Shown: one piece after another, positions 1,545 to 41,373 of the stretch
Position numbering within the stretch: the first letter of the stretch is position 1
Layout of the letters: each line of letters starts with the position of its first letter
Assembly (NCBI GenBank): GCA_963812135.1
Contig: CAWETU010000001.1
Coordinates: 704,001 to 768,000, forward strand
DNA length: 64,000 bases
Reading direction: 5' to 3'
Origin: Vulcanimicrobiota bacterium
GTDB taxonomy: Bacteria; Vulcanimicrobiota; Vulcanimicrobiia; Eremiobacterales; Eremiobacteraceae
Notes under the pieces: generated by a model
Told to the model about the DNA's origin: nothing
Database searches by the model: none
The model's input: only the letters and a program-made list of their open reading frames with translations
Position numbers and translations under genes: made by a program

Positions 1545-1668
1545 CTTCCGAGCGCGGGGTATGCTAGAATCCAGGTTACCGTCGCATGGGGTGAGCCTTC
1601 GACGGATGTCTGCGTCGCCTATTGTCCCGCGTGCGACGCTCGGAAAAGGGAAAGGGCGGTATACTCCT

Positions 1669-2283: not shown

Positions 2284-2284
2284 T

Positions 2285-2310
2285 GTAGCACCCGAGCGAA
2301 GGCTCGGGTG
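2285..2310 (+). repeat. GTAG-headed palindrome of a second type; may also act as a terminator
   Basis: GTAG-CACCCGAGC-gaag-GCTCGGGTG; similar stem CACCCGAGC-tgc-GCTCGGG near 58577. Confidence 0.5.
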
Positions 2311-2400
2311 TTCTTGCGAGCGCAGCTCGCGAGCGCGCTTAAGGATGGCCCGCCTCTCGAAGGCAGGCCATCTTGCGTTTGAGCGGTGAAGCTACGTCGT

Positions 2401-3153
2401 ATGAAGCCGAAGATCGCCATTGCGGTGAGCGCGCACGAGCTGGGCAAGCCCGACGCGCGCGCGAAATATCGCTTTGCGGTCGAACAAGCGGGCGGTCAGC
2501 CCGAGCTCGTGGGCCCGCCGCAATACCTGGCATCGGTCTCCGAGTTGCTCGAGCGCTTTGATGGCTTGCTCGTACCAGGCGGCGCCGACGTCGCACCCAC
2601 GATTTATGGAAGTCGCGAGCATCCGGCCGTCGAGTCGGCCCCCGAAGGCACTGACGAATTCCAGATCGAGGCGGTGCGCGCCGCGCGGCGCGCGGGCATT
2701 CCATGCTTTGGCATCTGCCGCGGCATCCAGGTGATGAACGTCGCGCTCGGCGGCACGCTGTACGAGGACATCGAAGATCAATTCGAGCCGCCCAACGGAC
2801 TGCGGCTCACGCACAAGCAGACGCCCGATCACGCGCGCGACGAGACCACCCACGTGATCGAAGTCGCCAGCGGTTCGACGCTTGCCACGCTATTGGGCAC
2901 CACCTCGCTTGCGACCAATTCGCTGCATCACCAGGCGGTGCGCCGCGTCGCCGCCGGGCTGCAGGTCGTGGCGACCGCGCGCGACGGCGTCATCGAGGCG
3001 CTGGAGCTGCCCGAGGCGCGCGCGTTGTTCCTCGGCGTGCAATGGCACCCGGAAGAATTGGTCACGCGCGACGAGCCGAGCCGCCGCCTCTTCCGTGGTT
3101 TCGTCGAGCGCGCCGCGGAGCGCGCGCAACGCCGCACCGCGCGGGCGTCCTAG
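2401..3153 (+). CDS. Gamma-glutamyl-gamma-aminobutyrate hydrolase family (peptidase C26, class I glutamine amidotransferase)
   Basis: DGLLVPGGADV, FGICRGIQ nucleophile, NSLHHQAV, GVQWHPE. Confidence 0.9.
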   Translation: MKPKIAIAVSAHELGKPDARAKYRFAVEQAGGQPELVGPPQYLASVSELLERFDGLLVPGGADVAPTIYGSREHPAVESAPEGTDEFQIEAVRAARRAGIPCFGICRGIQVMNVALGGTLYEDIEDQFEPPNGLRLTHKQTPDHARDETTHVIEVASGSTLATLLGTTSLATNSLHHQAVRRVAAGLQVVATARDGVIEALELPEARALFLGVQWHPEELVTRDEPSRRLFRGFVERAAERAQRRTARAS

Positions 3154-3165
3154 GATCGAGGATCG

Positions 3166-4494
3166 TTGAGAGCGTCCGCGTTGCGCGGACTCGACGCCGC
3201 GATCGGCGCGCTCGAAGCCCGCATGTTGCCGCGCCTGCAGCGCGCGGCCGACGAGCCGCATTTCGCAGCGGTGCGCGCCGCCATCCAGCCGGCGTTCTGG
3301 GTGATGGCGGTGGCCACGGTCGTCGTCTACTTCTTCGTGCCGCCGCATCCGATCGTGTGGCAGCTCTCCGATCTCTTCGCGCGCTTCCTCGACGCGTACC
3401 ATATCGGCTTCGGCGCGATGGGCGTCGCGCTCGCCGTGCTGCTGGCCAACCATCTTGCGCTGCGCTTTGGCTACGATCGCATCGCGGCCGTGCTCTTGAC
3501 AGCGGCGGCTTTCGCGCTCTCGCTGCCGAGGCCGGTGCCGCATTCGCCTTTCGTCTTGCTCGGAACGCTGTCGGCAGGCAGCCTCTTCCTGGCGATCATC
3601 GTCGCCAGCCTGACCGGGGAGGCGATGCGCTGGATCTATCGCGCCATCAAGCGCCGGGCGCTCGCGTTCGTCGCGTCGGCGGTTGCGGTGCTCGGCCTCT
3701 TCGCCGGCATCGCGGGCCTGCTGGCGCCGTCTCACCACAGCATGGCGGACGTGCTGCTCGCCGCGATCAAGCCGCTGATCGGCGTGGGCGACACCCTGCC
3801 CGCATTGCTGCTCGTCGTGTTCCTCCAGGTGTTGCTATGGACCGCGGGTGTGCACGGCCCCGGTTTCCTGTCGGCGATCACCACCCCGATCTTCTTGGGG
3901 GCCATCGACGCGAACGGCCAAGCGCTCTTGCACCATCAGGCTCCGCCGCACATCGTCACCATCACGCTGTTCTTGTTTTTCTTTCCCGGCGGTTCCGGCG
4001 CGACGTTCTCGCTCAACGTCCTCATGCTGTTCTCGAAGATCCCGCGGGTGCGTAAGCTCGGCTTCGCGTCGATCCTGCCGAGCTTCATCAACGTCAACGA
4101 GCCGCTCATCTTCGGCTTACCGCTCGTGATGAATCCGAGTCTGACGATCCCGTTCATCGGCGTGCCGCTGGTGCTCGCCACGATCACCTATCTAGCGATG
4201 TACTTCGGCTTGGTGGCCAAAACCGTGGTGTTCTTGCCGGGCGCGATTCCGGCGCCGATCGCGGCCTGGCTCACCACCAACGGCGACTGGCGCGCGGTGG
4301 CGCTCGTGTTCGTCAACATCGCGCTGGCGTTCGTGATGTACCTACCCTTTTACCGGACATTCGAAGACACGCTCCGCGCGGCGCCCGAGCAAGAGGAACA
4401 ACTCGTCAAGGCGGCCGAGGCTATTCGCGAACACGAGCTCGAACTCGAACGGCATCCGGAAAGCGCGCGAACGGAAGAGGAGAGCATCCCGTGA
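3166..4494 (+). CDS. PTS sugar transporter EIIC (cellobiose/lactose family)
   Basis: Multi-TM protein with LWTAGVHG, GGSGATFSL, INVNEPLIFGLPLVMNP, MYLPF. Confidence 0.85.
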   Translation: MRASALRGLDAAIGALEARMLPRLQRAADEPHFAAVRAAIQPAFWVMAVATVVVYFFVPPHPIVWQLSDLFARFLDAYHIGFGAMGVALAVLLANHLALRFGYDRIAAVLLTAAAFALSLPRPVPHSPFVLLGTLSAGSLFLAIIVASLTGEAMRWIYRAIKRRALAFVASAVAVLGLFAGIAGLLAPSHHSMADVLLAAIKPLIGVGDTLPALLLVVFLQVLLWTAGVHGPGFLSAITTPIFLGAIDANGQALLHHQAPPHIVTITLFLFFFPGGSGATFSLNVLMLFSKIPRVRKLGFASILPSFINVNEPLIFGLPLVMNPSLTIPFIGVPLVLATITYLAMYFGLVAKTVVFLPGAIPAPIAAWLTTNGDWRAVALVFVNIALAFVMYLPFYRTFEDTLRAAPEQEEQLVKAAEAIREHELELERHPESARTEEESIP

Positions 4495-27584: not shown

Positions 27585-28016
27585 ATGCGCACCCAACTCC
27601 TCGCTAAGGACGCCATCAAGCGGCAATGGTTCATCGTCGACGCCAAGGGCCAGACGCTGGGCCGTCTCTCGGCGCGCGTCGCCGCCGTGCTGATCGGCAA
27701 GCACAAACCTGATTTCACGCCTCACGCGGATTGCGGTGACTATGTCATCGTGGTCAATGCGGAACAGGTCCACCTCACCGGCAAGAAGTGGACCGACAAG
27801 CTTTACCGGCACCACACGCAGTACCCGGGCGGACTGCTGACCCAGACCGCCGGCGACATCAAGGCCAAGCATCCCGAGCGTCTGGTCGAGTACGCCGTGC
27901 GTGGGATGTTGCCGCTCAATAAGATCCGCGCGCAGCGCATGAAGCGGTTGCGCGTGTTCGTAGGCGCCGAGCACGATCACGGCGCGCACAAACCGCAACC
28001 CTTGAAAGTAGATTGA
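27585..28016 (+). CDS. rplM: 50S ribosomal protein L13
   Basis: [40 protein letters not shown]. Confidence 0.98.
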
Positions 28017-28417
28017 TGGCTATCACCGCTCCTAGCGTTCCTCGCGGCACCGGACGGCGCAAACGCGCTGTGGTGCGCGTGCGACTCGCGCCCGGCACGG
28101 GCGAGATCACGATCAACGGCAAGGAAGCCGACAAATACCTCTGCCGCGCGACGCTGATGCAGATCGTGCGTCAACCATTCGAAGCGACGAACAGCGTCGG
28201 ACGCTTCAACGTCACCGTCAATGCATTCGGCGGCGGGCTCACCGGCCAGGCCGGCGCGATCCGCCACGGTATCGCCCGAGCGCTCGTGTCCGCAGATGAG
28301 ACGCTGCGGCCGGTGCTGCGCAAGGCCGGGTTGCTCACGCGCGACCCGCGTGAGAAAGAATCGAAGAAGTACGGACGCAAGCGCGCCCGCAAACGCTTCC
28401 AGTTCAGCAAGCGATAA
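28016..28417 (+). CDS. rpsI: 30S ribosomal protein S9
   Basis: [38 protein letters not shown]. Confidence 0.98.
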
Positions 28418-29206: not shown

Positions 29207-30991
29207 CTATCCGTGAAGGACGTAGACGGTTGTGAGTCCCGCGCGGCCTTTGATCCGCGCTTGGCGGCGCGTGGCCGCCACTTGATCGCGGACCTTCTCA
29301 TACGTGCGTGCGTCCGCGAGGATCTGGTTCGGTTCGGCGATCGACTGCAAGCGCTGCGCGAGGTTCACCGCGCTGCCGACCACAGTGTATTCGAGCCGGC
29401 GCTCCGAGCCGATGTTGCCGGCGACGACATCGCCGGTCGCAAGCCCGATGCTCACCGACAGCGGCCAGCTGACGCCCGGTTGTGCGTTGAGCAGTTCGAC
29501 TTGTTCGAGGATCTGGCGCGCGGCCAGCACCGCGCGGTTGGTGTCGTCGGCGGCAGGACGCGGCGCGCCGAAGACCGCCATGATGCCGTCGCCATAGTAT
29601 TTGTCGAGCAATCCGAGATTGGCCAACACGACGTCGACGGTCGGCGCAAGGTAGCGATTGAGCATCTCGACGACTTCTTCAGGCATCAGCCGTTCTGATA
29701 ATTCGGTGAAGCCGCGGATGTCGGCGAAGAGCATCGTCGCGGTGAGGCGCGTGCCACCCAGCGGCACATTGTCAGGATCGAGCAGCAGCTCGCTCACGAC
29801 GTGGGGCGCCAGATAGCGCTCGAACGAGCGCGCGACCTTTTCGCTGTGCTCGATCTGCGCTTTGTTCTCAGCTTCCAATGTGCGTCGCGCGGTGAGGTCG
29901 TTGAGGACGACGGCGGTGCCGACGCCTTCGCCGGTCAGCGAGTGGACGCGTAAGAACGTCGCCTGCAACACGATCGGCCCGCGCACGAAGTGCGTGCCGC
30001 GCAGCTCCACTTCCGCGCGACCATCGGGCAGCGACTTGTATTGCTCGAGCAGCGTCGTGAAACCGGGCAGCCACGAATTGAGGATGCGCGCGTGCCGGCC
30101 CTCGAGCGTCGACGCCGACAGGCCAAACGTGATTTCTGCCGCGCGGTTGAACTGCGCGATCGAATCGTTCTCGTCGAGCATGATGACGCCCGACGCGATC
30201 GACTCGAGGATCTCGTCGGTCTGCGCCTTGATGTTGGAGAGATCCTCGAAATTGCGATTCCAATCGTCGTACAGCCGCGCGTTGTCGATCGCCACTGCGG
30301 CTTGGTCCGCGATGGTCGCGAGCAGCTCGGGGTCGTGCTGGAACAGATTGTCGGTGCGGATGCGCGAGTCGACGTAGATCACACCGATCGTGCCGGCCTT
30401 GCCGACGATCGGCACGCAGTTGATCGACCGGATGTGCAGCGAGCGGATGCTGGGCGACGCATCGACCTGCGGATCGTTCTGCGCGTCGGTCGTCACCAAC
30501 GGCACGCCTTCTTTGAAGACGCGCTCGATGATCGACCGGCTGACCGCGAACTCAGGCCGGGTCACGAGACCGGGATCGATGTTCGCGCCGGCGCTGTATT
30601 CTTTTTGGCCGCCACCTGGGTCGGGCACGACGATGAGGCCGCGTTCGGCGCCGGCGGCTTCGACGGAAAGATCGACGATCAGCTGGAGCAGCGCATCGAG
30701 CCGCCTGACGACGTTGATCGCTTTGCCGATGCGGACCAATGTGTCCGCGCGGCGCTGTTGGGTTTCGAGTTCGCTTTGGAGGCGCTGAGCACGGGCGGAC
30801 GCCACGCTGGCTTCGAGCTCGCGTGCATGCACCTCGCTGCGCGCGCGCGCGAGCAGATCGAGCAGCTTGTTGGCGGTCGACGCGGACTTCGGGCTCGGTG
30901 AGGGTCCAGCGAGCCGGCGAGCGTCGTCGAGCGCTTCATCCAGGCGGGCAGCGATCCGCTCCCAAGGGTTATCCCGCCGGTCGTGCTCCAT
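29207..30991 (-). CDS. GAF-PAS class III adenylate cyclase
   Basis: GAF (SRSII...IGVIYVD...AAVAIDNARL), PAS, FADIRGFT, DKYYGDG, EYTVVG, VNLAQRL. Confidence 0.92.
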   Translation of the reverse strand: MEHDRRDNPWERIAARLDEALDDARRLAGPSPSPKSASTANKLLDLLARARSEVHARELEASVASARAQRLQSELETQQRRADTLVRIGKAINVVRRLDALLQLIVDLSVEAAGAERGLIVVPDPGGGQKEYSAGANIDPGLVTRPEFAVSRSIIERVFKEGVPLVTTDAQNDPQVDASPSIRSLHIRSINCVPIVGKAGTIGVIYVDSRIRTDNLFQHDPELLATIADQAAVAIDNARLYDDWNRNFEDLSNIKAQTDEILESIASGVIMLDENDSIAQFNRAAEITFGLSASTLEGRHARILNSWLPGFTTLLEQYKSLPDGRAEVELRGTHFVRGPIVLQATFLRVHSLTGEGVGTAVVLNDLTARRTLEAENKAQIEHSEKVARSFERYLAPHVVSELLLDPDNVPLGGTRLTATMLFADIRGFTELSERLMPEEVVEMLNRYLAPTVDVVLANLGLLDKYYGDGIMAVFGAPRPAADDTNRAVLAARQILEQVELLNAQPGVSWPLSVSIGLATGDVVAGNIGSERRLEYTVVGSAVNLAQRLQSIAEPNQILADARTYEKVRDQVAATRRQARIKGRAGLTTVYVLHG

Positions 30992-31050: not shown

Positions 31051-31506
31051 TTAATAGGAGGGGTAGTTGGCGTCGAACTGGATGACGTAGTACCACAAGG
31101 TGGCACGGCGCATGCCCGCGGGTACCAGAAATGCCAGCGAACCGCTCTGACCCTGACCCGGGCCGAGGACAGTTTCGGAGAGCGAACCGACGAGTGACGT
31201 GGTCTTCTTGCGATCCACATGATACCCGTCGTCGGAACCATACCCGTCGGAGCGCAGCACGAAATCCTTGTAATCGACGTTCAGCGGCGACTGGCGGCTT
31301 TGATTGAACATGTGCATCTGGTCGATGACGATGTACTTCGTGTCCGCGGTCGGTCCAGGAACTGCGTAGCTCGATGTCGCCCAGAAACCGGCGGGCAATT
31401 GCACTTGGACCTGCGTGTATTGATCGTTGGAATCGGCGCGTCCGGCGGCGCTGAGCACGAGCGTCGCGCCGATCGCGGCAAGCGCTGACAAGGTGCGGGG
31501 ATTCAT
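31051..31506 (-). CDS. Exported Ig-like protein (DUF4352-like)
   Basis: Signal peptide; DFVL, LGPGQGQSGSLAFLVP. Confidence 0.6.
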   Translation of the reverse strand: MNPRTLSALAAIGATLVLSAAGRADSNDQYTQVQVQLPAGFWATSSYAVPGPTADTKYIVIDQMHMFNQSRQSPLNVDYKDFVLRSDGYGSDDGYHVDRKKTTSLVGSLSETVLGPGQGQSGSLAFLVPAGMRRATLWYYVIQFDANYPSY

Positions 31507-31607
31507 AGCGGTTGGAGAGTTCATCCATCTCGCGGACCAATCCCGCTCACATCGCACGGCTACCGTTCAGTTCATATTCAGCCGAGACGTTCGGCGGGAG
31601 GCGTTCG

Positions 31608-31922
31608 ATGTCGGTGCTCAATATGGTGGAAACGGCGATGCAGTTCTCACAGTATCGCGCCGCGCTGCTCGCCGGGGACGCGGCGAATGCAAGCTCGGCC
31701 GGATTCCGCCCAACGGATGCGGCGCTCGCGATCGAGCCAGCCGCAGGTGGCCTGCGTTTCGCGGCAGCGATGCGTGACGTCGAAAGCACCGGCCCTGTCT
31801 CCACCGTCGAGTATGCGATGGGTGGCATCGCGAAAAATTCGGTCTGGTATCGGGCGCTCGCCAGTCAAGCGCACGCGATCTTGCGCGAGTTCCGCACCGT
31901 CGCGGAGGAGGCGCGCCGATGA
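31608..31922 (+). CDS. flgB: Divergent flagellar basal-body rod protein FlgB-like
   Basis: GGGAGG RBS; RAALLAGDAANASSAGFRPTD is a degenerate NIANxxTPGYxxxD; VEYAMGGIAKNSVWY; first gene before flgC. Confidence 0.65.
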   Translation: MSVLNMVETAMQFSQYRAALLAGDAANASSAGFRPTDAALAIEPAAGGLRFAAAMRDVESTGPVSTVEYAMGGIAKNSVWYRALASQAHAILREFRTVAEEARR

Positions 31923-32395
31923 GCGACGCGCCGTCCGCGTTCGACATCGCGGCGAGCGGCATGTCGGCGCAACGCGTGGCCATGGACGTCATCGCCGAAA
32001 ATCTCGCAAACGCGAACGTGCAGCGCGTCGACGGCTCTCAGTTCCGCGGGCGGACCGCGGTCTTCGAACCATCGGCGTCGTTCGCCGACGCGATGGACGC
32101 GGCGGGCAACTCGAGTTTCGACATCACCGTGGACGATGACGGCGTAGCGCCCGCCGGCGTCCGCTTCGCCGGACTGATGGAGCAAGCCGATCAGCCCGCG
32201 TACCGCCTCGACCCGGGCAACCCGCTTGCGGCGACGAGCGGCCCGCACAAAGGTTACGTCGAAGAATCGGGTGTCGATCCCATCGCGCAAATGATCGGCC
32301 TGGTCAGCGCCGGTCGCGCGTATGACGCGGACGTGTCGGCGCTGCAAGCCGCCAAGCAGATGGACACCGAAGCGATCGACATCGAGCAAATCTGA
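31919..32395 (+). CDS. flgC: Flagellar basal-body rod protein FlgC
   Basis: IAASGMSAQRVAMDVIAENLANAN, DPGNPLA, GYVE..VD, MIGLVSAGRAYDA. Confidence 0.9.
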   Translation: MSDAPSAFDIAASGMSAQRVAMDVIAENLANANVQRVDGSQFRGRTAVFEPSASFADAMDAAGNSSFDITVDDDGVAPAGVRFAGLMEQADQPAYRLDPGNPLAATSGPHKGYVEESGVDPIAQMIGLVSAGRAYDADVSALQAAKQMDTEAIDIEQI

Positions 32396-32685
32396 TGACT
32401 GCCCCCATCGAGCCGGTCGCTGCCCTTCGACCCGCGCTGCTGATCGAACGCGTTGACGCTCCTACGAATGAAGGCGGCGGCAGTCCCTTCGCGGCGCTCA
32501 TCGAGGACGCGTCCGCTTCGTTGCGCCGCGCCGACGACGCCGCAGCGCTGGTGGCGTCGGGTCACGGCAACGTCGCGACGGCGGCGGTCGCCCGCGCGCA
32601 TGCCGATGTCGCCCTCGAGGTCGCCGCCATCACGGCCTCGCGCGTCAGCGGCGCGATCGCGACGCTGTTGCAAACGCAGGTGTGA
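32395..32685 (+). CDS. fliE: Flagellar hook-basal body protein FliE-like
   Basis: 96 aa; FAALIEDA...ADVALEVA...LLQTQV; sits between flgC and fliF. Confidence 0.75.
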   Translation: MTAPIEPVAALRPALLIERVDAPTNEGGGSPFAALIEDASASLRRADDAAALVASGHGNVATAAVARAHADVALEVAAITASRVSGAIATLLQTQV

Positions 32686-32688
32686 TCC

Positions 32689-34098
32689 GTGCTGGCGCGC
32701 TTGCCCGCGTCGCTGCCGCGCGTCATCGAGGATTGCGCCGTCTGGGCACATCGGCGGCGAAGACCGGTGACCGCAGCGGCGTGTGCGGTTGCGCTCACCG
32801 TGGCGTTCTGCGCGATCGTCGCGCGCAACATCGCGCCCGTATCGCTGTTCGACGCGCCATTGCATCCGAAGCAGACGACTGAAGTCGCGCAAGCGCTGAC
32901 GCTGTGGAACGAGCCGTTCACCGTGAACGCGCAGTCGACGCAGATCTACGTCGCCGCCCGGCGGCGGCGCGAGTTGCTGGTACTTCTTTCTTTGGCCGAC
33001 TTGCCGCACGGATACGTTCCGACCACCGCTGATGTCTTGCAAACCCAAGACAATCCGCTGACGCCGCCGGAAATCGTCGACGATCGGCGCCGCGCGGGAA
33101 TCGAGGGCGATCTCGTCGCCGGGCTGCGGCGCATCGATGGCGTCGCCGATGCTGCAGTCGTCATCGCGCCTGCAAGCGGCGACGCATTTGCGGACGCCGG
33201 CGACCGCTCGCCGCCGAGCGCGAGCGTGCAACTCATCTTGCAGCCGGGGGTCCAGCTGAGCGCGACCGCCGTCGCCGGCATCCGAAGGTTCGTCGCAGCC
33301 GGCTACCCTGGGCTGAGCGCGGACAAAGTTGCAGTGGTCGACGGTTCGGGCGCGCTCTTGGGAGCCACGCCGGATCGAGCCGCTGCGCGCGAGTCGCGCA
33401 TCCAAGCCAACGTGCAGTCAGCGCTCGACGGCGCCCTCGGCGCCGGAGCTGCCATCGTGCGCGTGAGTGTTCGCACCGCGGGCTCGGAACAATCGGTGCA
33501 AAGCACGAGCGTCGTGCCGCACGGTCTGCTTGACGCCGATACCGGCAGCGAATCGGGCGCCGAGAACGGTCGCAAGCTGAACAAACAGCGTACGACGCGT
33601 CACTACGCGTATGACACCATCGTCGAACACCGCAATATCGCCGCCGACGCCATCGGCCGGATCTCAGTCGCCGTGTTCCTCGATGCGTCGCGAGTCGACG
33701 CCTCGCACAGCGCTGCCATCAGCTCGCTTGTCCGCGCCAGTGCGGGCGCTGATCTCAATGCAGGCGACGACGTGGTCGTCGAGTCCGTTCCATTCGCCCT
33801 CAAACCGACGCCCGTCATCGCGGCAGCGCCCGCCCCCTTGGCGCAAGCGATGTTGCCAGTCGCGGCGATGATGCTCGTCGCGGTCGCCCTCGGCGTCACG
33901 CTTTGGCCGCAACGAGCCGGGCATCGCGACTCGGCTGTCGCGGGGCTGCGAAGCTCGCTTGACCGTGAATCGCCGCGCACCGCGGCATATGTGCTGTCGA
34001 CCCTGCCGCAGTCGACGCGCGAGCGCGTCCTCGCGTCATACGGTCCGTTGCGCCGCGCCTCGATCGAAGCGTGCCTGCAAGACCAACATGTCCGCTGA
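32689..34098 (+). CDS. fliF: FliF (MS-ring)-like protein with a C-terminal FliG-middle-domain-like segment
   Basis: TM1, ring-building motifs (IEGDLVAGLRRIDGVADAAVVI, PPSASVQL, PGLSADKVAVVD), RISVAVFLD, GDDVVVESVPF, TM2, then ESPRTAAYVLSTL. Confidence 0.8.
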   Translation: MLARLPASLPRVIEDCAVWAHRRRRPVTAAACAVALTVAFCAIVARNIAPVSLFDAPLHPKQTTEVAQALTLWNEPFTVNAQSTQIYVAARRRRELLVLLSLADLPHGYVPTTADVLQTQDNPLTPPEIVDDRRRAGIEGDLVAGLRRIDGVADAAVVIAPASGDAFADAGDRSPPSASVQLILQPGVQLSATAVAGIRRFVAAGYPGLSADKVAVVDGSGALLGATPDRAAARESRIQANVQSALDGALGAGAAIVRVSVRTAGSEQSVQSTSVVPHGLLDADTGSESGAENGRKLNKQRTTRHYAYDTIVEHRNIAADAIGRISVAVFLDASRVDASHSAAISSLVRASAGADLNAGDDVVVESVPFALKPTPVIAAAPAPLAQAMLPVAAMMLVAVALGVTLWPQRAGHRDSAVAGLRSSLDRESPRTAAYVLSTLPQSTRERVLASYGPLRRASIEACLQDQHVR

Positions 34099-34666
34099 AT
34101 TCGGCCCGCTGCGTGTGCGCCGCTATCGTGCGCCCGCACAGTCGTTGGAATCGGCGCAGAGCGCGGCGCCCGAATCGCCGCCGCAGGTGGGTTCGCCGGA
34201 TGGCGAGGATGCGGCGCCAGTGGTCGCAGCGGACTCGCCGGCGTCGTGCGCGCTCGCGACAAGCGCCGCACAGCCAGCCGCAAATGAAGTTCCGGATCAT
34301 AGCGACATTCCCGCGGCTTACGAACCTCCCTCATATGATGAAGAGCGCTTCGAAGCCGCCGTCCGCGAGGAGGCGATCCGTTTCGCATCCATCGCCGTTG
34401 CTCGCGCCCTGCGCGTCGCACTGGTCGACGATGCCACGCTCGCCAGGTACGTGGACGACGCGTTGCGCGCGTGTGGCCGTGGCGGACGAGCGACCGTCCG
34501 GCTACATCCGCGCGACGCGCCCGCCTATCGGCCCACCGGCGATCTCGAGGTCGTCAGCGACGATTCGTGTGAAGCGGGCCAAGTGGTGATCGAACTTCCC
34601 ACAGGTTCGCTCGGCGCGACCGCCGACGAACGTGCTGCGTTGCTGGTCAGAGCGGTCGCGTGCTGA
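34088..34666 (+). CDS. fliH: FliH/SctL-like protein
   Basis: Disordered N-terminus, then AVARAL...VRLHPRD...DDSCEAGQVVIELPTGSL; between fliF and fliI. Confidence 0.65.
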   Translation: MSAEFGPLRVRRYRAPAQSLESAQSAAPESPPQVGSPDGEDAAPVVAADSPASCALATSAAQPAANEVPDHSDIPAAYEPPSYDEERFEAAVREEAIRFASIAVARALRVALVDDATLARYVDDALRACGRGGRATVRLHPRDAPAYRPTGDLEVVSDDSCEAGQVVIELPTGSLGATADERAALLVRAVAC

Positions 34667-35994
34667 CCGCGCGCCCTTTTCCAGTCACATATCCAGAGGC
34701 CGATGGCTTCGTCCGCCGCGGTACCGTGCAACGCGTCACGGCCGAGACGATCGACGTGCGGTGCCCTGCGCTGACGTCCGGAGACGCAGTGTTGATCGAA
34801 GGGTTCAGCGATGCGAGTCCGGTGATCGCAGAGGTCACGATGACGGGCGTCGACGGCGCTCGTTGTGCCACGCTCGAGCACGGCGCGCGGATTCGCGTCG
34901 GCGCAAACGTGTTGTGTGCTGGGGGACGAGTGGGAGCGTACGCCGGCGAGGTCTTGCTCGGTCGCGCGCTCGATGCGTGGGGGCGCGATCTCGACCACGC
35001 GCCCGTTAGGGGCCGCATCGTCGTGCCGCTCGAATCGCGACCGCTCGACGCGCGGACGCGGGGGCCGATCGAGAGCCCGCTGCGCACCGGCATCGCAGCC
35101 ATCGACGCCCTCACGACGATCGGCTATGGCCAGCGGGTCGCCTTGACTGCCGGCGCCGGCGTCGGCAAGACGGCGCTCTTGCGCCGCATCGTCGAGCATG
35201 CCGAGGCGGATGCGCGCGTCATCGCGCTCGTCGGCGAACGGGGCCGAGAGGCGGCCGAGACCGTGCGGCGGCTGCGCGCCCTTCCGGAGTGGCCGCGCAC
35301 CTCGCTGTATTGCGCCACATCCGAAACCAGCGCGATCGAACGGTTGACGGCGGCACGCAGCGCGACCGCCCAAGCAGAGTGGCTGTGCCGCAACGGACGA
35401 CACGTGCTGCTGGTGATCGACTCGCTCACACGCGTCGCGAACGCGTGGCGCGAGTTAGCGCTCGCTGCTGGCGAACCGATGGGTCCGCGGGGCTATCCGG
35501 CGTCGCTCGGCAGCACGCTTGCGCGACTCGTCGAGCGCGCCGGCGCCCGCCCCCAAGGATCGATCACCGCGGTGTACGCCGTCTTGGTCGAGGGCGACGA
35601 CCCGTTTGAGCCGGTCACCGACGCGCTGCGCGCGCTGCTCGACGGCCATATCGAGCTTTCGCGCACGCACGCGCAGGCCGGTCGATTTCCGGCGATCGAC
35701 GCGTTGCGTAGCCTGAGCCGCTCGATGCCCGATGTCGTAAGCCCGGCCCAGCGGGCCGACGCCGCGCTGGTCAGGCGCGCGCTTGCGACGCTGGAAAACG
35801 CTGAAGACCTGATCGCGATCGGCGCATATCGCGCGGGTTCGGACGCGTGGCTCGACGCGTGCGTCGCGTTGCGCCCGGCGATCGAATCGTTGATCTTCGA
35901 CGGACTTGGCCGTCCCGACGATCCGTTGGTCCGGCTCGCCGCGCTTGCAAACGAATTGCGACGCACCCCTGGACCAGTGCCGGCAGTCGCGTGA
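34660..35994 (+). CDS. fliI: FliI/YscN family export ATPase
   Basis: TGIAAIDAL, GQR, GAGVGKT, GERGRE, IDSLTR, GEP..RGYP, VLVEGDD, LDGHIELSR, FPAID. Confidence 0.92.
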   Translation: MLTARPFPVTYPEADGFVRRGTVQRVTAETIDVRCPALTSGDAVLIEGFSDASPVIAEVTMTGVDGARCATLEHGARIRVGANVLCAGGRVGAYAGEVLLGRALDAWGRDLDHAPVRGRIVVPLESRPLDARTRGPIESPLRTGIAAIDALTTIGYGQRVALTAGAGVGKTALLRRIVEHAEADARVIALVGERGREAAETVRRLRALPEWPRTSLYCATSETSAIERLTAARSATAQAEWLCRNGRHVLLVIDSLTRVANAWRELALAAGEPMGPRGYPASLGSTLARLVERAGARPQGSITAVYAVLVEGDDPFEPVTDALRALLDGHIELSRTHAQAGRFPAIDALRSLSRSMPDVVSPAQRADAALVRRALATLENAEDLIAIGAYRAGSDAWLDACVALRPAIESLIFDGLGRPDDPLVRLAALANELRRTPGPVPAVA

Positions 35995-36047
35995 TAGGCA
36001 ATCGCGTCGACTCGCGCATTCTTGAAACGGCATCGGAGGCTCTTCAC

Positions 36048-36776
36048 ATGAGTATTTCGCCAGCTGCACCCCAGGGATTACAATGGCCTGCGCCCGTCGC
36101 CAGACGCCCGTGGCCGCTCGAAGCGATCGACGGGCCAGACCAACCTTCATCTCCAACGCAGGATGGGTCGACGGACTCGGCGGCTCCGGCGAACCAACCC
36201 AATGACGCATCTGCGCCGCTCAGTCTCACGAAGCTCATCGCGCAGCTCTCACGGCAGCTCACGTCGATCGAGCAGACCTTCACGCGCGCGCTACAGGCAC
36301 TGACGAAGAGCGTCGAATCAACGGCTTCATCGGACATCGCATCCAGCGTGCCGGCCAACAATAGCGGCGCGGCTGCGCTGGGACCCAGCCCCTATGACGG
36401 TCTGATCCGCCGCGCGGCCAACCGCCACGATCTCGACCCCGCGCTGCTTGGCGCCGTCGTCCGCCAGGAGTCCGGCTTCGACCCGAACGCGCGCTCGAGC
36501 GCCGGCGCCATGGGATTGATGCAGCTGATGCCCGACACCGCGCGCTCGCTCGGCGTGAAGAATGCGTTTGATCCGGCGCAGAACGTCGAGGGCGGCGCGA
36601 AGCTGCTGCGCGGTTTGATCGACCGCTACTCCGGGCGGCTCGACTTGGCGCTCGCGGCGTACAACGCGGGATCCGGCGCGGTGGACAAGTACCATGGCGT
36701 TCCGCCATATGCGGAAACCCGCGAGTATGTGCATTCGATCCTGGCCGATTACCGGGTCCGGGCGCTCGGCGCCTAG
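36048..36776 (+). CDS. Lytic transglycosylase (SLT domain)
   Basis: VVRQESGF, AGAMGLMQLMP, NVEGG, ALAAYNAG, PPYAETREYV; GGAGG RBS; no obvious Sec signal. Confidence 0.92.
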   Translation: MSISPAAPQGLQWPAPVARRPWPLEAIDGPDQPSSPTQDGSTDSAAPANQPNDASAPLSLTKLIAQLSRQLTSIEQTFTRALQALTKSVESTASSDIASSVPANNSGAAALGPSPYDGLIRRAANRHDLDPALLGAVVRQESGFDPNARSSAGAMGLMQLMPDTARSLGVKNAFDPAQNVEGGAKLLRGLIDRYSGRLDLALAAYNAGSGAVDKYHGVPPYAETREYVHSILADYRVRALGA

Positions 36777-36831: not shown

Positions 36832-36853
36832 TATCGAGAATGATTCTCGATAA
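36831..36853. promoter_or_regulatory. Zur/Fur-family operator, perfect 11-1-11 palindrome
   Basis: TTATCGAGAAT-G-ATTCTCGATAA, overlapping the end of the -10 and the znuA start codon. Confidence 0.85.
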
Positions 36854-37787
36854 GCATAAGACGCGACGCGCCCTCAGGTCCGCAGTGGCACTCACCATCG
36901 CTGTGTTGACCGGCTGCACCTCGCAACAACCGACTAGCGCACCGCAACCCACGACGACTCCGTCGTCCAGCCAACGCCTCCAAGTCGCCGCGACGATCTC
37001 GACGCTCGCAGCGCTCGTCAAGGCGGTCGGCGGCGACAAGGTCGACGTCGTGAGCATTGTGCCGATCGGCGTCTCGCCCGAAACGTATGACCCCTCGCCT
37101 CGCGACCTCATCGCCGTTGCAAACGCCCATATCATTTTCAAGAACGGCGCCGGACTCGAGATCTGGCTCGACAAGATGCTGCGCGCCGTCGCCAAGCCGA
37201 GCACCAAAGTCGTTGTGCTTTCGGACGGCCTGCCGGTCGCGGGCGCCAAAGGCCCGGGCGAACCAGGCAATCCGCATCTTTGGCTCGATCCGACATACGC
37301 GCAGGTGTACGTCCATAAGATCGCCGCGGCGCTGAGCGAGGTCGATCCCGCGAATGCGGCCTACTATAGCGCGCGCGAGAAAGCCGAGCAGAAGCAGTTG
37401 GCGCAGCTCGACGCGTGGATCAAGCAGCGCATCGCCACCATTCCGCCGGCGAACCGCACGATGCTGGCGTTCCACGACGCGTGGTACTATTTCGATCGCC
37501 GCTACGGCATCCGCGACGTCGGCGCCATCGAGCAGTCGCCCGGCCAATCGCCGTCCGCCGCGTATCTCGCGGCGCTGATCGCGCAAGCGCGCGCGAGCGG
37601 CACCCGCGCGGTGTTCGCTGAACCGCAGTTCTCCCCTAAACTTGCCCAACAGCTCGCCGCCAGCGCCGGCATTAAGACGGTGACGAACCTCTACGATGAC
37701 ACGCTCGGCACGACGCCGGAGCTACAGACATACGACGGGATGTTGCGTTACGATGTCGATACTATCGTCAAGGCATTGACATCATGA
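36840..37787 (+). CDS. znuA: Metal (Zn/Mn) ABC transporter substrate-binding lipoprotein
   Basis: Lipobox LTGC, NGAGLE, NPHLWLDP, FHDAWYYF, VFAEPQ. Confidence 0.88.
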   Translation: MILDKHKTRRALRSAVALTIAVLTGCTSQQPTSAPQPTTTPSSSQRLQVAATISTLAALVKAVGGDKVDVVSIVPIGVSPETYDPSPRDLIAVANAHIIFKNGAGLEIWLDKMLRAVAKPSTKVVVLSDGLPVAGAKGPGEPGNPHLWLDPTYAQVYVHKIAAALSEVDPANAAYYSAREKAEQKQLAQLDAWIKQRIATIPPANRTMLAFHDAWYYFDRRYGIRDVGAIEQSPGQSPSAAYLAALIAQARASGTRAVFAEPQFSPKLAQQLAASAGIKTVTNLYDDTLGTTPELQTYDGMLRYDVDTIVKALTS

Positions 37788-38695
37788 GCGAGCATGAAAC
37801 CGTGCACAACCACACCCACGTCGATCCGGCGACGCCGACCGCGCCGGCCGATCATAGCCATGCGGTCACCGCCACCAAGCCGCATCTGCATCAGCATCGC
37901 GATCATCGGCCGCCGGAGCCGCGCGATATATCGGTCGGCGCGAACAGCGCGATCGACTTGGAAGGCGTGTGCGCGGGCTACTTCGGCCGCGACGTGCTCG
38001 ACGAGGTCAGCCTCGATGTCAAGCGCGGCGAGTTCGTCGGGATCATCGGCCCCAACGGCGCCGGCAAATCGACGCTGCTCAAGGTCATCGCAGGACTGCT
38101 CGAGCCGCAGTGCGGCATCGTGCTCGTCCTCGGCAAGCCGCCCGGCCACGGCCAACCTATAGGCTACGTGCCGCAGACCGAAGCGGTGAATTGGACATTC
38201 CCGGTCAGCGTTCTCGACGTCGTGCTCATGGGTGTGTACGGCAAGCTCGGCCTGTTCCACCGGCCCGGCGAAACTGAGCACCGCGCCGCGTTGAGAGCGC
38301 TTGAGGAAGTCGGCATGCGCGAGTTTGCGGACGAGCAGATCGGCGAGCTCTCCGGTGGACAGCAGCAACGCGTTTTTGTGGCGCGCTCGCTGGTGCAAAA
38401 CCCCGAGCTGCTGCTGTTGGACGAGCCGATCTCCGGCGTCGACGCGACGAGCCAGCACGCGATCTTCACCTTGCTCGAGGAGCGCCAGAAAAGAGGCCAG
38501 ACGATCGTGGCCACAACGCACGACCTGTCGTGCGTGGCCACGTGGTTCGACAAAGTGCTGTGCCTCAACCATCGCGTGATCGCCTATGGGCCGCCGGACC
38601 AGGTGCTCACCGATGCGACGCTGTCCGCGACCTTCGGTAGTCACGTGTTGGTCATCCCCGACGCGCAGGCCGCAGTCCGGTCGGCGCAGCTCTAA
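37784..38695 (+). CDS. znuC: Metal ABC transporter ATPase with a His-rich N-terminal extension
   Basis: [32 protein letters not shown]. Confidence 0.9.
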
Positions 38696-38698
38696 GGC

Positions 38699-39565
38699 GT
38701 GGATTGGCTGCTCGTCCCCTTGCAACAGGACTTCATGGTGCGCGCGCTCATCGCGTCGACGCTGATCGGCTTGGTCTGCAGCGTCGTCGGCGTCTACGTC
38801 GTGCTGCGCAACCTCGCGTTCATCGGCGACGGCATCGCGCACGCGTCATTCGCCGGTATTGTGATCGCGTATCTTCTCAAGTTCAATCTCTACGTCGGCG
38901 GACTCATCGTGGCGGTGCTCACGGCGCTTGGTATCGGCGCGATCAGCCGGCGTTCGGAGGTTTCGGTGGACACGGCGATCGGCGTCATGTTCACGTCGGT
39001 TTTCGCGTTGGGCGTGCTTCTCATGTCGAGGGCGCGCAACTACATCGTCGATCTGCAAGATTTCTTGTTCGGAAATGTGCTCGGCGTCGACCGGACGGAC
39101 ATCATCCTTGTCGCGAGTCTGACGTGCGGTGTCCTCATCATCATCTTCGCGCTGTACAAAGAGCTGCTGTTCGCGTCGTTTGATCCGCTCATGGCGCAGG
39201 CGAGCGGCCTGCCGGTGACCGCGCTGAGCAACTTGCTGCTCGTCATCCTCGGCGTGACCATCATCGTGTCGCTGCAGGCTGCCGGCATCGTGCTCGTCGC
39301 AGCGCTGTTGGTGACGCCGGCGGCGGCTGCGTTCCAGTTGACCAACCGTTTCGGCGCGATGATGGCGACGTCGGCGGCGATCGGCGTCGGCTCGGCGATC
39401 GTCGGTCTGTACGCGTCGTACTATCTCAACGCGGCGTCGGGCTCGACGATCGTGCTCACCGCGACGTTGTGCTTCTTCGCGGCGATGGCGTTCTCGCCCA
39501 AGCGCCGCTCGTTGCTCACCCAAGTGCTTGAGGCGCGCCGTCGTGCGCGATCGGCGACCCCATGA
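38699..39565 (+). CDS. znuB: Metal ABC transporter permease
   Basis: FIGDGIAHASFAG, LFGNVL, SFDP, GIVLVAALLVTPAAAA. Confidence 0.9.
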   Translation: MDWLLVPLQQDFMVRALIASTLIGLVCSVVGVYVVLRNLAFIGDGIAHASFAGIVIAYLLKFNLYVGGLIVAVLTALGIGAISRRSEVSVDTAIGVMFTSVFALGVLLMSRARNYIVDLQDFLFGNVLGVDRTDIILVASLTCGVLIIIFALYKELLFASFDPLMAQASGLPVTALSNLLLVILGVTIIVSLQAAGIVLVAALLVTPAAAAFQLTNRFGAMMATSAAIGVGSAIVGLYASYYLNAASGSTIVLTATLCFFAAMAFSPKRRSLLTQVLEARRRARSATP

Positions 39566-39999
39566 GCGCGAAACCGCGCGAGCGCGACGCCCTCGACGAG
39601 CGCTTGGCGCGCAGCGGCGGGCGTATGACCACGCAGCGCAAGACGATCGTCGCCGAATTCGAGCGGCTGCGCCGCTACGTGACCCCGCAAGAACTGCATC
39701 GCAGGCTCGCCGACAGCCGCCCGCGCATCGCGCTGGCCACTGTCTACCGGACGCTTGAAATGCTCGAGGGCATCGGCGCTGCGTCGCGCGCGCCGCGCGC
39801 GCATGGTGAAGCGGCATATCTGTTCTGCGCGCCGACGCACCATCACCACGCCGTCTGCACCCAATGCGGCAAGGTCGATGACGTGCCGTGCGGCTCGGTC
39901 GAACGCTTCGCGCGCACGCTTGCGAAAGGTCTGCGCTTCCAGCTGCGCCAGCACAGCCTCGAGTTCTACGGCGTGTGCGCCCGCTGCTCCGGCGCCTAG
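39562..39999 (+). CDS. zur: Fur-family regulator, probably Zur
   Basis: RMTTQR, ATVYRTL, HHHHAVCTQCG, FYGVCARC; last gene of the znu cluster. Confidence 0.82.
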   Translation: MSAKPRERDALDERLARSGGRMTTQRKTIVAEFERLRRYVTPQELHRRLADSRPRIALATVYRTLEMLEGIGAASRAPRAHGEAAYLFCAPTHHHHAVCTQCGKVDDVPCGSVERFARTLAKGLRFQLRQHSLEFYGVCARCSGA

Positions 40000-40069
40000 C
40001 GACTTTTCCGCAACGCCCCAGCGCCCGCACGCCAGGCCCGGCGCCGCGCCGACGCGAATGACGCGCGCC

Positions 40070-40741
40070 ATGCCCCAAAAGCCATCAGCGCCGCCCGTCG
40101 ATCGGACGGGCCGTATAGCGACGCTCGCGTTCGGCGTGTTCGTCATCATCGGCATCATCGCGCTCATCGCCTACACGATGACGCATCAGAACGCGCCCGC
40201 CGCGGTCAGTCCGGCGGCGACGCAGACCGCGACACCGGTGCCGCGGCCGAGCGAAACGCCGGGAACCCACTTCAAATCGCAAGGCCACCCCGGTCACGAC
40301 CAGAAGGACCCGAGCAAGATGGGCAGCTTCCGTTACAATTCGGATCCGCCCACGTCCGGGATGCATTTCGAAAAGTTTACCGACGCCCTCATCAACACGA
40401 AACCGCTGCCGAAGTACATACAAGTGCATGTGCTCGAGCACGGCAACGTGTTGCTGCAGTACAATTGCACCTGTCCGGACATAGCCGGCGCGTTGGCGCA
40501 GATCGCGTCGAGTTACAACAACCGCCAACTACCCGCGGGCAGCGCTGAGTTCACTCCTGATATCGTGCAAACGATCGAAGAGAATGGCTCTGGCGTGATC
40601 GTCGCGCCCTACCCGGGCATGAAATCCAAGATTGCGCTCACCGCGTGGACTCGGCTGCAGACCTTTGACGCGATCGATCAGGCGAGCATGGTGCGCTTCA
40701 TCAACGCCTACTTGACCAATCAGGAGAACGCCGCTCAGTGA
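40070..40741 (+). CDS. DUF3105-like membrane-anchored protein, paralog 1
   Basis: TM; SQGH, YNSDPPTSGMH, VHVLEHGNVLLQYNCTC, IALTAW. Confidence 0.78.
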   Translation: MPQKPSAPPVDRTGRIATLAFGVFVIIGIIALIAYTMTHQNAPAAVSPAATQTATPVPRPSETPGTHFKSQGHPGHDQKDPSKMGSFRYNSDPPTSGMHFEKFTDALINTKPLPKYIQVHVLEHGNVLLQYNCTCPDIAGALAQIASSYNNRQLPAGSAEFTPDIVQTIEENGSGVIVAPYPGMKSKIALTAWTRLQTFDAIDQASMVRFINAYLTNQENAAQ

Positions 40742-41373
40742 AACTGACGAACAGCATCGTGCCTGCCGCGGCGATCGCAGCGCTCGTCCTGGCCGGCTGC
40801 GCCAAGGGCGACAGCAACACGAGCGCCGCCGCATCGCCTTCCGCCGCCTCGCTCGCGGCAGCCCCGAGCTCCTCGCCGCAGACGATCGCGCTGACGTTTT
40901 TGGGCACACACTACCCCTCGCAAGGCCACCGGCATTTCGACCCGGGCGAGTCGACCAAGTTCGCCTACAACTCGGACCCGCCGACGTCCGGCCCCCACTT
41001 GGAGATGTTCAGCTCTTCGTTCAACAACGCGACGCCGCTGCCGGCGTTCGTCCAAGCCCACCTGCTCGAGCACGGCAATATCTTGCTGCAATACAACTGC
41101 AACTGCCCCGATATCGCCGGCGCGCTTTATCAGATCGCGTACAAGTACGACAGCCGGCTCATCCCGCCGGACCAGATGCAGGCGACGCCGGCCCAAGTGC
41201 AGGCCGCCGAAGAGGCCGGTGAGTCGGTCGTCGTGGCGCCGTATCCGGGGATGAAGCACAAGATCGCGCTGACGGCGTGGACCCGCCTCGGCACGCTCGA
41301 CTCGATCGATCAGGCCAAGATCGAATCGTTCATCAACGCGTACCTGCACAACCAAGCGAACACCGCGCAATAA
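40738..41373 (+). CDS. DUF3105-like lipoprotein, paralog 2
   Basis: Lipobox LAGC; SQGHRH, YNSDPPTSGPH, AHLLEHGNILLQYNCNC, IALTAW. Confidence 0.8.
   Translation: MKLTNSIVPAAAIAALVLAGCAKGDSNTSAAASPSAASLAAAPSSSPQTIALTFLGTHYPSQGHRHFDPGESTKFAYNSDPPTSGPHLEMFSSSFNNATPLPAFVQAHLLEHGNILLQYNCNCPDIAGALYQIAYKYDSRLIPPDQMQATPAQVQAAEEAGESVVVAPYPGMKHKIALTAWTRLGTLDSIDQAKIESFINAYLHNQANTAQ

Follow-up and report, generated by a model that had tools for sequence, protein, structure and literature searches.

In textbooks, a single ancestral type III machine gave rise to two outcomes, the flagellum and the injectisome, and the change from a rotary motor to a static secretion device has been inferred mostly from phylogeny. 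Non-flagellar type III systems keep the export core without the motility parts, and in them the homologue of the flagellar C-ring serves as a sorting platform. Reduced, secretin-less non-flagellar type III loci of the Myxococcus type were reportedly described by Abby and Rocha in 2012. Partial flagellar sets have also been reported in several bacteria. Buchnera aphidicola, an endosymbiont, is described as non-motile and has kept the genes of the MS ring, the rod and type III export, with fliC, motA and motB lost; repurposing of its basal bodies as protein exporters has been proposed. In the available part of that report, the Buchnera set is the remnant of the only flagellum, with FliG and FlgH/FlgI retained and the hook present in part (flgD, flgE, flgK) (PMC8109811). 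Bergeron has reported homology between the middle domain of FliG and the cytosolic C-terminus of FliF in the Chlamydiaceae, bacteria presumed to be non-flagellated; according to the available part of the article, this FliF has ~330 aa and no ring domains (Bergeron 2016, PMC4768692). Legionella micdadei and L. fallonii carry, according to an abstract, a second flagellar system that is putative and partial (PMC5655016). Here we describe a flagellum-derived gene set in a stretch of 64,000 nucleotides from a Vulcanimicrobiota bacterium of the class Eremiobacteria (the window; G000:C1:704001-768000, in a genome of 2.79 Mb that is assembled in 6 contigs and 98.4% complete), together with its remaining parts elsewhere in the same genome.

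Judged by gene content and conservation, the set is a real, class-wide type III machine of flagellar descent that has no motor, no hook and no filament, and neither an artefact nor plain decay. A conserved flagellar base that lacks these three parts most likely builds a device that does not rotate and serves export or spans the envelope, and not a swimming organelle. The reading that we favour, with a probability of roughly 0.6, is a functional, non-rotating, flagellum-derived type III exporter. A preliminary description of this DNA had offered two options, of which one was a non-rotating apparatus derived from the flagellum that exports or spans the envelope and brings its own enzyme to open the peptidoglycan; the analysis supports this option. 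The window holds seven intact open reading frames (ORFs), all on the + strand at 31608-36776, in the order flgB-flgC-fliE-fliF-fliH-fliI followed by a lytic transglycosylase gene (SLT); ORF calls and family matches bear out both the order and the open frames as first described. The genes are the following.

31608..31922, + strand: flgB-like proximal rod gene, 104 aa, strongly diverged (NCBIfam FlgB E=1.1e-3)
31919..32395, + strand: flgC proximal rod gene, 158 aa (TIGR01395 104.5 bits, cut-off 102.1; PF00460, PF06429)
32395..32685, + strand: fliE-like gene, 96 aa (PF02049 E=0.052; TIGR00205 E=0.0097)
32689..34098, + strand: fliF MS-ring gene, 469 aa (PF01514 E=3.7e-23; PF08345 E=1.4e-14)
34088..34666, + strand: fliH-like gene, 192 aa, putative ATPase stator/regulator, strongly diverged (PF02108 E=0.002; SctL TIGR02499 E=0.007)
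34660..35994, + strand: fliI type III export ATPase gene, 444 aa (PF00006 E=6.3e-67; PF18269 E=4.3e-14)
36048..36776, + strand: lytic transglycosylase gene (SLT), 242 aa (PF01464 E=3.5e-30)

The successive junctions from flgB to fliI are a 4-nt overlap, a 1-nt overlap, a 3-nt gap, an 11-nt overlap and a 7-nt overlap, and 53 nt separate fliI from SLT. The starts of fliH and SLT are taken as the ATG codons at 34088 (inside the 33959-34666 ORF) and 36048 (inside the 35847-36776 ORF). All the motifs quoted at first are present in the translations (GDAAN in FlgB; GAGVGKT, GERGRE, IDSLTR and SLSR in FliI). FlgB, FliE and FliH had been called strongly diverged, and each lies at or under detection limits when searched singly. 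FlgB alone has no Pfam match; a profile of seven FlgB orthologues, searched against the Protein Data Bank (PDB), gave Salmonella FlgB (7bin_Q, E=1.1e-4) as the sole significant match. In two loci of sister families, L017 and L019, the FliE orthologues exceed the Pfam cut-off (23.6 bits), as do the FliH orthologues (30 and 32.8 bits). The best NCBIfam match of the SLT protein is the flagellar assembly lytic transglycosylase of the BB0259 (Borrelia) type (1.1e-31, below cut-off). Its N-terminal half looks disordered, and no Sec signal peptide was evident in three orthologues whose translations were judged by eye. The SLT gene stands after fliI in 6/6 loci of the type found in the window's family (f1), and also in L017 and L019.

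The genes on either side of the operon are unrelated to it, as had been stated, but the remaining parts of the machine stand at two other loci of the genome, so that the system is spread over three, its proximal third lying in the window.

C5:251611-258678, - strand: 160-aa ORF, 248-aa FlgE/F/G-like gene, FliM-like gene, fliN, fliP, fliQ, fliR, flhB, flhA; then secD, secF
C1:67942-70386: flgF, flgG, 86-aa FlgJ (rod-binding domain only), FliA-like sigma factor

A search for flhA, flhB, fliPQR and fliM/fliN had been suggested, and these genes were found on C5, with the distal rod pair flgF-flgG on C1. The whole export gate (FlhA, FlhB and FliPQR) lies on C5:251611-256421, with FlhA at 691 bits (PF00771), FlhB at 232.6 bits (PF01312), FliP at 210.4 bits (PF00813), and FliQ and FliR over their cut-offs. 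For FlhA, FlhB and FliP the flagellar NCBIfam models outscore the Sct models. The FlhB translation carries NPTH, which we take to be the autocleavage motif. At the position of flgE is the 248-aa FlgE/F/G-like protein, which has a D1 domain only, and the C1 sigma factor has FliA/WhiG as its best family (165 bits, below the 189.6 cut-off). Overall, the parts present are the MS ring (FliF), the gate (FliPQR-FlhB-FlhA), the ATPase pair (FliH-FliI), FliM and FliN, and the rod proteins and FliE (FlgB, FlgC, FlgF, FlgG), together with the rod-binding-only FlgJ, the separate lytic transglycosylase, the D1-only protein and the FliA-like sigma factor. The 160-aa ORF (C5:258196-258678) has no family match and is 35% identical to its counterpart in genome G071. 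It was considered as a FliK and is left unassigned; tblastn with the FliK-like (T3S4) proteins of L017, L018 and L019 finds nothing in the genome (best E 0.085).

A full-length fliG together with hook, filament and stator genes elsewhere was looked for genome-wide and not found. The genome holds no match to FliG_C (PF01706), to Flagellin_N, to FlgH or FlgI (Pfam models) or to FliJ (PF02050), and its only Flg_bbr_C proteins are FlgC, FlgF and FlgG; Pfam models likewise gave no MotA/MotB and no FlgE/FlgD/FlgK. The absence of fliJ after fliI, claimed at the outset, is thereby borne out, and no separate fliG gene stands between fliF and fliH. The sole MotA_ExbB (PF01618) match adjoins two ExbD-like and TonB-like ORFs, and the sole secretin (PF00263; C1:1501110-1503065) lies in a type IV pilus locus with pilin, prepilin-peptidase and PilM-like ORFs, the neighbours having been read by eye in both cases. 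As a control, 29 proteins of the canonical fla/che cluster of a genome of the same class, G135, were used as tblastn queries against the window's genome. FliG, FliH, FliJ, FliK, FlgD, FlbD, MotA, MotB, FliM, FliO, CheC and CheW had no match; FliF (27%), FliI (44%), FliP (42%), FlhB (38%) and FlhA (40%) matched the divergent copies only, and FlgE matched FlgF/FlgG only. The sigma factor of the canonical G135 region has a 70%-identical orthologue at G000:C1:1831579-1832358; because this orthologue is in a flagellum-less genome, that sigma factor is not flagellum-specific, unlike the FliA-like one on C1.

The claim that fliG is missing holds for the gene, but not for all of its product, as the final ~50 residues of FliF form a conserved piece of FliG's middle domain, FliG(M).

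33949..34095, + strand: FliF C-terminal cytoplasmic tail, aa ~421-469, FliG middle-domain-like (ESPRTAAYVLSTLP...RERVL), by PF14841, hhalign and PDB profile search

At 469 aa, FliF is ~90 aa shorter than the canonical FliF of the same class (558 aa) and covers positions 13-177 of 179 of PF01514 and 59-147 of 147 of PF08345. A search gave 150 homologues, and the 120 listed are at least 47% identical. Behind the second membrane helix the protein ends with ...SLDRESPRTAAYVLSTLPQSTRERVLASYGPLRRASIEACL..., and the FliG(M)-like motif is the best conserved stretch of the C-terminal region in 105 homologues; E427, P429, A433, V447, L448 and R456 are invariant in 30 FliF sequences. The FliG_M family (PF14841) is over its cut-off in the FliF of L017 and L019 (28.5 and 28.4 bits) and matches the FliF of the window at E=0.036. 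In hhalign, the tail profile aligns with residues 143-183 of a same-class FliG (EHPQTIALIL...; E=2.1e-5, probability 77%). When a profile built from 10 tails was run against the whole set of PDB sequences, the top 6 matches were all FliG (E=7.6e-6 to 1e-4), among them Thermotoga maritima FliG middle-domain chains crystallised with FliM. The recognisable FliG(M) portion amounts to only ~45 residues. Because the tail matches FliG_M by Pfam, by hhalign and by PDB profile, we read it as a FliG(M) stub that, by homology, is fused to the MS-ring protein in a genome where the fliG gene is absent. A FliF with a FliG(M)-homologous C-terminus is shared with the Chlamydiaceae. As far as the available part of the Chlamydiaceae article allows comparison, the two differ in that the FliF described here has 469 aa, both PF01514 and PF08345 and ~45 residues of FliG(M), and is accompanied by rod, C-ring and gate. 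The system of the class Eremiobacteria and the published one of the Chlamydiaceae may belong to a wider, so far unrecognised family of FliF-FliG(M) machines.

The proposed partner of this tail is the FliM-like protein of C5, of which only the SpoA domain is matched by sequence. Its AlphaFold model has a mean pLDDT of 67.7, with ~85-90 over residues 40-180. For this model Foldseek ranks highest the FliM of the Salmonella C-ring (E=1e-8) and the T. maritima FliM middle domain (TM 0.55, rmsd 3.8 A), and the product is thus predicted to have the FliM fold. It has no N-terminal LSQxEIDxL-type peptide, the CheY-binding peptide of FliM that the canonical FliM of G135 possesses. A predicted complex of FliM (36-268) with the FliF tail (405-469) scored 0.40 against 0.15 for the best control, which is weak support; the mark used for such predictions is reached by 116/157 solved complexes and 2/215 mismatches, and scores of 0.60 or less occur in only 18/157. 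The runs agree in at least 87% of contacts, with a partner pLDDT of at least 75. Because solved FliG(M)-FliM complexes exist, the score may mirror likeness to that family, and it is taken as a hint only.

These data bear on the view that the genes encode a flagellum that works in motility and of which the rotor torque domain, the stator, the hook and the filament escape detection, being too diverged or non-homologous. FlgB, FliE, FliH and FliM all lie at or below detection limits, so more parts could be hidden in the same way. Nevertheless, the same-class FliG, MotA, MotB, FliK and FlgD match nothing and FlgE finds only FlgF/FlgG, the FliF tail holds the FliG(M) fragment alone and then ends, and FliM is without the peptide found in its same-class canonical counterpart. 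In addition, the only cultured Eremiobacterota strain is reported to have no flagella and no flagellin gene and to show type IV pilus motility with pilus-based phototaxis, in the available part of the paper; the strain is not confirmed as a carrier of the cluster (PMC9758169). A hidden swimming organelle is accordingly very improbable.

With a profile built from 30 divergent FliFs, the distribution of the system was followed in 151 genomes of the phylum, 82 of the window's class (the window's genome included) and 69 of other classes. Strong matches (best E 1e-211 to 2e-78) were present in 76/82 class genomes, that is in 9/9 of f1, 65/71 of f2 and 2/2 of f3, and in 0/69 genomes of other classes, in which none exceeds 176 bits and only the N-terminal ring domain aligns. 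FliG_C occurs in 28/82 class genomes (f1 0/9, f2 26/71, f3 2/2), and all 28 also hold the divergent FliF and a second, high-scoring FliF that adjoins fliG. Hence 48 of the 76 carriers are without a FliG_C-bearing flagellar set and 28 are with one. Two or more FlhA matches were found in the 28 FliG-positive genomes and one in most FliG-less genomes. In a second sample, flagellin was over its cut-off in 22/91 class genomes, all of them FliG-positive, and in 0/32 of f1. The f1 tallies take in G128, G153 and G155, which are flagged as unpublished and contributed no sequence to the analysis. Flg_bbr_C genes number exactly 3 (flgC and the flgF-flgG pair) in the single-system genomes G071, G140, G011 and G036, and 8 in the dual-system G135. 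Two FliF relatives, 67% and 70% identical, are Eremiobacterota/Vulcanimicrobiota metagenome-assembled genomes (MAGs). Carriage by 76/82 genomes and coexistence with a complete flagellar set in 28 show that the class has here a second, paralogous system, which is retained whether or not an ordinary flagellum is present and is not the wreck of the only flagellum.

In this respect the Legionella species offer a likeness, a second and incomplete flagellar set beside or instead of an ordinary one, drawn from the description in the abstract alone. Loss of flagellin and MotAB with retention of basal-body and export genes is common to Buchnera and the present system. Compared with the available part of the Buchnera report, however, the Eremiobacteria system is a paralogue in free-living soil bacteria, stands beside a full set in 28/76 carriers, and is without FliG_C, FlgH/I and hook. 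Sub-cut-off Flagellin_N matches (21-23 bits) in 7 single-system genomes of genus g9 were considered as flagellin and rejected. In the two of these seven that were examined (L038, G097:C1:93000-101000; L039, G065:C6:218500-225500), the match lies in an ORF of ~425-500 aa directly upstream of a transporter-like ORF, and the product looks, by eye, like a coiled-coil membrane-fusion protein.

The arrangement of the genes in related bacteria clarifies both the split and the origin of the system. In f2 and f3 there is one cluster from rplM-rpsI to secD (L017, L018 and L019), with flgB-flgC-fliE-fliF-fliH-fliI-SLT followed by a gene for a small FliK-like (T3S4) protein, the gene of the D1-only FlgE/F/G-like protein and then fliM-fliN-fliP-(metF in f2)-fliQ-fliR-flhB-flhA. 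The window keeps the rplM-rpsI side and C5 the secDF side. Because these two sides sit on separate contigs, the window holds one half of a broken cluster; the locus is a piece of a split cluster and no minimal operon complete in itself. G071 shows the same split order. The canonical order in G135 is flgB-flgC-fliE-fliF-fliG-fliH-fliI-fliJ...fliK-flgD-flgE-flbD-motA-motB-fliM-fliY-fliO-fliPQR-flhBA, and the divergent cluster follows it minus fliG, fliJ, flgD, flbD, motA, motB and fliO. Such an order, that of the Bacillus fla operon, is of the Bacillus/spirochaete type. Because the cluster matches the G135 order with genes removed, gene order points to an origin as a duplicate of a Bacillus/spirochaete-type fla operon in which fliG was lost save for its M fragment. 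On the duplication reading, the D1-only protein may be the shrunken occupant of the flgE slot. Families and relative order are shared with the canonical operon for FlgB, FlgC, FliE, FliF, FliH, FliI, the FlgE-like protein, FliM, FliN, FliPQR, FlhB and FlhA. The divergent system differs in being without the FliG N and C domains, FliJ, FlgD, a full-size FlgE, FlbD, MotAB, FliO, flagellin, FlgK/L and che genes, in that the transglycosylase occupies the place of fliJ, and in that its proteins are only 27-44% identical to the same-class copies.

Some additional genes are inserted in the clusters of the sister families. In f2, a methylenetetrahydrofolate reductase gene lies between fliP and fliQ (L017:8097-9062, - strand, PF02219 E=7.6e-89; L018:13201-14094, + strand), and in L018 another ORF, of 227 aa, follows it. 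That a housekeeping gene stands inside the operon suggests that the cluster is transcribed. In f3, SLT and the FliK-like gene are separated by an ORF that carries two aspartyl-protease (PF13650) repeats (L019:7876-9636, + strand); its call is uncertain and it overlaps its neighbours.

The export ATPase was placed in more than one way. FliI scores 371.8 bits on FliI_clade1 and 370.6 bits on SctN, both below the cut-offs. Against 1.84 billion representatives it has five close clusters (50-90% identity), and all others are at 35-50%. A single clade unites the divergent FliIs of the three families f1, f2 and f3 (FastTree, 143 rows, support 92; IQ-TREE quick, 44 rows, SH-aLRT 93). It is separate both from the canonical FliI of the same class and from a group whose sampled members score best as SctN (SH-aLRT 94). 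The nearest FliI neighbours outside the clade score slightly better as SctN, and for 10 of the nearest relatives outside the clade the one named record is a Deltaproteobacteria MAG. Of the phylogeny suggested at the outset, a clade of its own outside the sampled SctN stands. The near-equal FliI scores, the SctN-leaning neighbours and SctL as the best NCBIfam match of FliH are what might be expected of a non-flagellar type III secretion system, an injectisome relative that injects effectors into other cells. The flagellar rod proteins FlgB/C/F/G, FliE and FlgJ are present, however, FlhA, FlhB and FliP favour flagellar over Sct models, no secretin belongs to the system, and FliI falls outside the SctN clade. 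SctF, SctI, SctD and a translocon were not recognised among the cluster ORFs scanned against Pfam, no dedicated search having been made. Compared with non-flagellar type III systems, the present one keeps the flagellar rod proteins and FlgJ and has no secretin, no needle genes seen in the clusters and a FliI outside the sampled SctN clade. Of all the readings considered, that of an injectisome is the least probable.

If the exporter reading is correct, its working could be as follows. The FliG(M) fragment of FliF would replace FliG as the docking site for FliM/FliN on the MS ring, and with FliM/FliN docked in this way the C-ring would therefore be only a sorting platform for FliH/FliI and the gate. 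Torque would be neither received nor generated. The gate would export FliE, FlgB, FlgC, FlgF, FlgG, FlgJ and the D1-only protein. The transglycosylase, without a Sec signal, is probably itself a type III substrate and would open the peptidoglycan. The product would be a static conduit, tipped by the rod, which extends to the outer membrane or abuts it, and its likeliest job may be to export proteins to the periplasm or farther out. Because NPTH is kept in FlhB and the sister families keep a FliK-like protein, a substrate switch is plausible, and with it later cargo.

The same parts could also build a static, rod-only, envelope-spanning structure with a structural or sensory role (a tether that joins inner membrane, wall and outer membrane, a polarity landmark or a signalling platform), the gate of which exports its own rod parts only. 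Apart from FlgJ and the transglycosylase, the likely substrates identified are all structural parts of the rod, none of the cluster genes was recognised as effector-like or as a chaperone gene, an outer-membrane channel was not found in the system, and a cyclase gene with GAF and PAS domains is a conserved neighbour in the window and, by its N-terminal sequence, in L019. Such a structure would nevertheless seem to have little use for the full ATPase module, the FliM/FliN platform and the FlhB with NPTH, all of which are kept, or for the FliK-like switch protein kept in the sister families, and the machinery exceeds the apparent need of one-off rod assembly. We regard the purely structural role as the chief alternative, doubtful though not negligible.

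In 6/6 related loci the order of the seven genes is unchanged and tblastn recovers each gene as a single open segment, with fliE undetected in L032. DNA matches were found in 12/12 other genomes of the family, at a nucleotide identity of only 65-78%. The ratio of non-synonymous to synonymous substitution rates (dN/dS; Nei-Gojobori, NG86) is 0.13-0.37 for the seven genes in 4 comparisons with 0 stops, and these are rough, upper-side estimates because dS is 0.9-2.6, near saturation. By the same method, rplM and rpsI give 0.13-0.14. The preliminary description had named a dN/dS near 1 with patchy loss as the sign of decay, and the values obtained disfavour it.

Besides the saturation of dS, several observations weigh against the exporter reading. 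The FliF orthologue is missing from 6/82 class genomes, and in four carriers its frame is interrupted, by one in-frame TAG in G063 and G137 and by a break into two pieces in G073 and G122; these TAGs and splits could be assembly errors or real loss. Evolution within the genus is fast, with 35-36% identity for FliM and the small C5 ORF and 55% for FliH. Of the 18 sequencing runs listed for the sequence, none is on record as RNA. The FliI ORFs of G140 and G135 are without ~60 N-terminal residues found in relatives. The FliI backbone is not settled, 24/41 inner branches being open in the IQ-TREE analysis, for which the taxa were the 150 best matches to the query. Genome searches found no P/L ring or secretin in the system that would explain a crossing of the outer membrane, and the FliK-like protein of the sister families has no homologue detectable by tblastn in the window's genome. 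Finally, fast-evolving or small proteins such as FliJ, FlgD and chaperones could be missed by profile and tblastn searches. Beside the shortened FliI, it may be added that the short ORFs are L017:12602-13657 (- strand; 351 aa, G140) and L018:6892-7932 (+ strand; 346 aa, G135). The FliI N-terminus of the relatives P0256 and P0171 has no match upstream of them, and part of f2 may have lost the FliH-binding or hexamerisation N-terminus.

Patchy loss of this kind, in 6/82 genomes, with stops or splits in 4/76 carriers and an N-terminally short FliI in two genomes, together with the many missing canonical genes and the several proteins below family cut-offs, would also suit a relic of a flagellar set that is being lost and has no function of its own. 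Set against this are the same reduced set across three families and 76/82 genomes, 48 without and 28 with a FliG_C-bearing set, frames that are open in 6/6 related loci at only 65-78% nucleotide identity with a low dN/dS, and a FliG(M)-like motif that is the most conserved stretch of the FliF C-terminal region. The relic reading is largely refuted by these data and we consider it improbable; the decaying relic that had been offered as an option at first is disfavoured by the kept order, the dN/dS, the wide carriage and the coexistence with a full set.

Upstream of the operon lies a short conserved block.

31531..31553, + strand: possible promoter/operator block CGCGGACCAATCCCGCTCACATC, near-identical in G071 and L009, where it stands equally far upstream of flgB

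Related versions are present in G041 and L010. A GTTCA-N6-GYTCA pattern occurs upstream of flgB, and on C5 a similar GTTCA-N6-GTTCA stands upstream of the operon. Genome-wide the pattern shows no enrichment, with 6 occurrences against 1-5 in shuffles, which is chance level. The function of CGCGGACCAATCCCGCTCACATC is unproven because the genome-wide count of the derived pattern equals chance, and for the same reason no claim is made of a regulon that shares it. No sigma-70-like site was found upstream of flgB, and GGGAGG stands 7 nt before the flgB ATG.

The upstream flank consists of rplM-rpsI (27585-28417) and the GAF-PAS-cyclase gene, and the downstream flank of a znuA-type ABC transporter and a Fur-family gene. 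The GAF-PAS-adenylate/guanylate cyclase gene (29207-30991, - strand) lies between rpsI and the operon, and L019 has an ORF with matching N-terminal sequence at the equivalent place (1600-3210, - strand). The cyclase may be a conserved neighbour with a regulatory link to the system. Divergent from flgB is a 168-aa ORF (31051-31557, - strand) with a signal-peptide-like N-terminus and no Pfam family. The region 36840-41373 looks like a metal-uptake island, with the znuA-type ABC transporter (ZnuA E=8.4e-78), the Fur-family regulator and two tandem DUF3105 paralogues that share the core ...YNSDPPTSG.H...LEHGN.LLQYNC.CPDIAGAL....

The system appears to be undescribed in print, as literature searches found no published description of it, subscription-only papers lying outside their coverage. 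In the paper on the cultured strain, Table S8 lists only fliN, and a divergent gene set is not discussed in the available part (PMC9758169). Automated annotation will mark non-flagellated Eremiobacterota as 'flagellar' or 'motile' owing to these genes. One member of the phylum is in culture, which brings imaging, knock-outs and secretome studies within reach. A soil lineage that is free-living and abundant worldwide keeps the ring and rod, the gate with its ATPase and the sorting platform, while of the rotor protein there is left a piece that would hold FliM; in many of its members an ordinary flagellum is present as well. It offers a natural experiment on which flagellar parts are needed for export alone, on a role of the C-ring beyond torque and switching, and on the use of a rod without hook, bushing or filament. 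Tentatively, and with more reserve than for the exporter reading as such, the class Eremiobacteria may possess a third kind of flagellum-related type III machine, distinct from both flagellum and injectisome, a non-rotating, rod-tipped exporter with FliG cut to a FliM-docking stub, which arose from duplication of the fla operon and has been kept for a function other than motility. If that is true, it would be a living example of the proposed stage between flagellum and injectisome at which motility has been lost and the secretin not yet gained.

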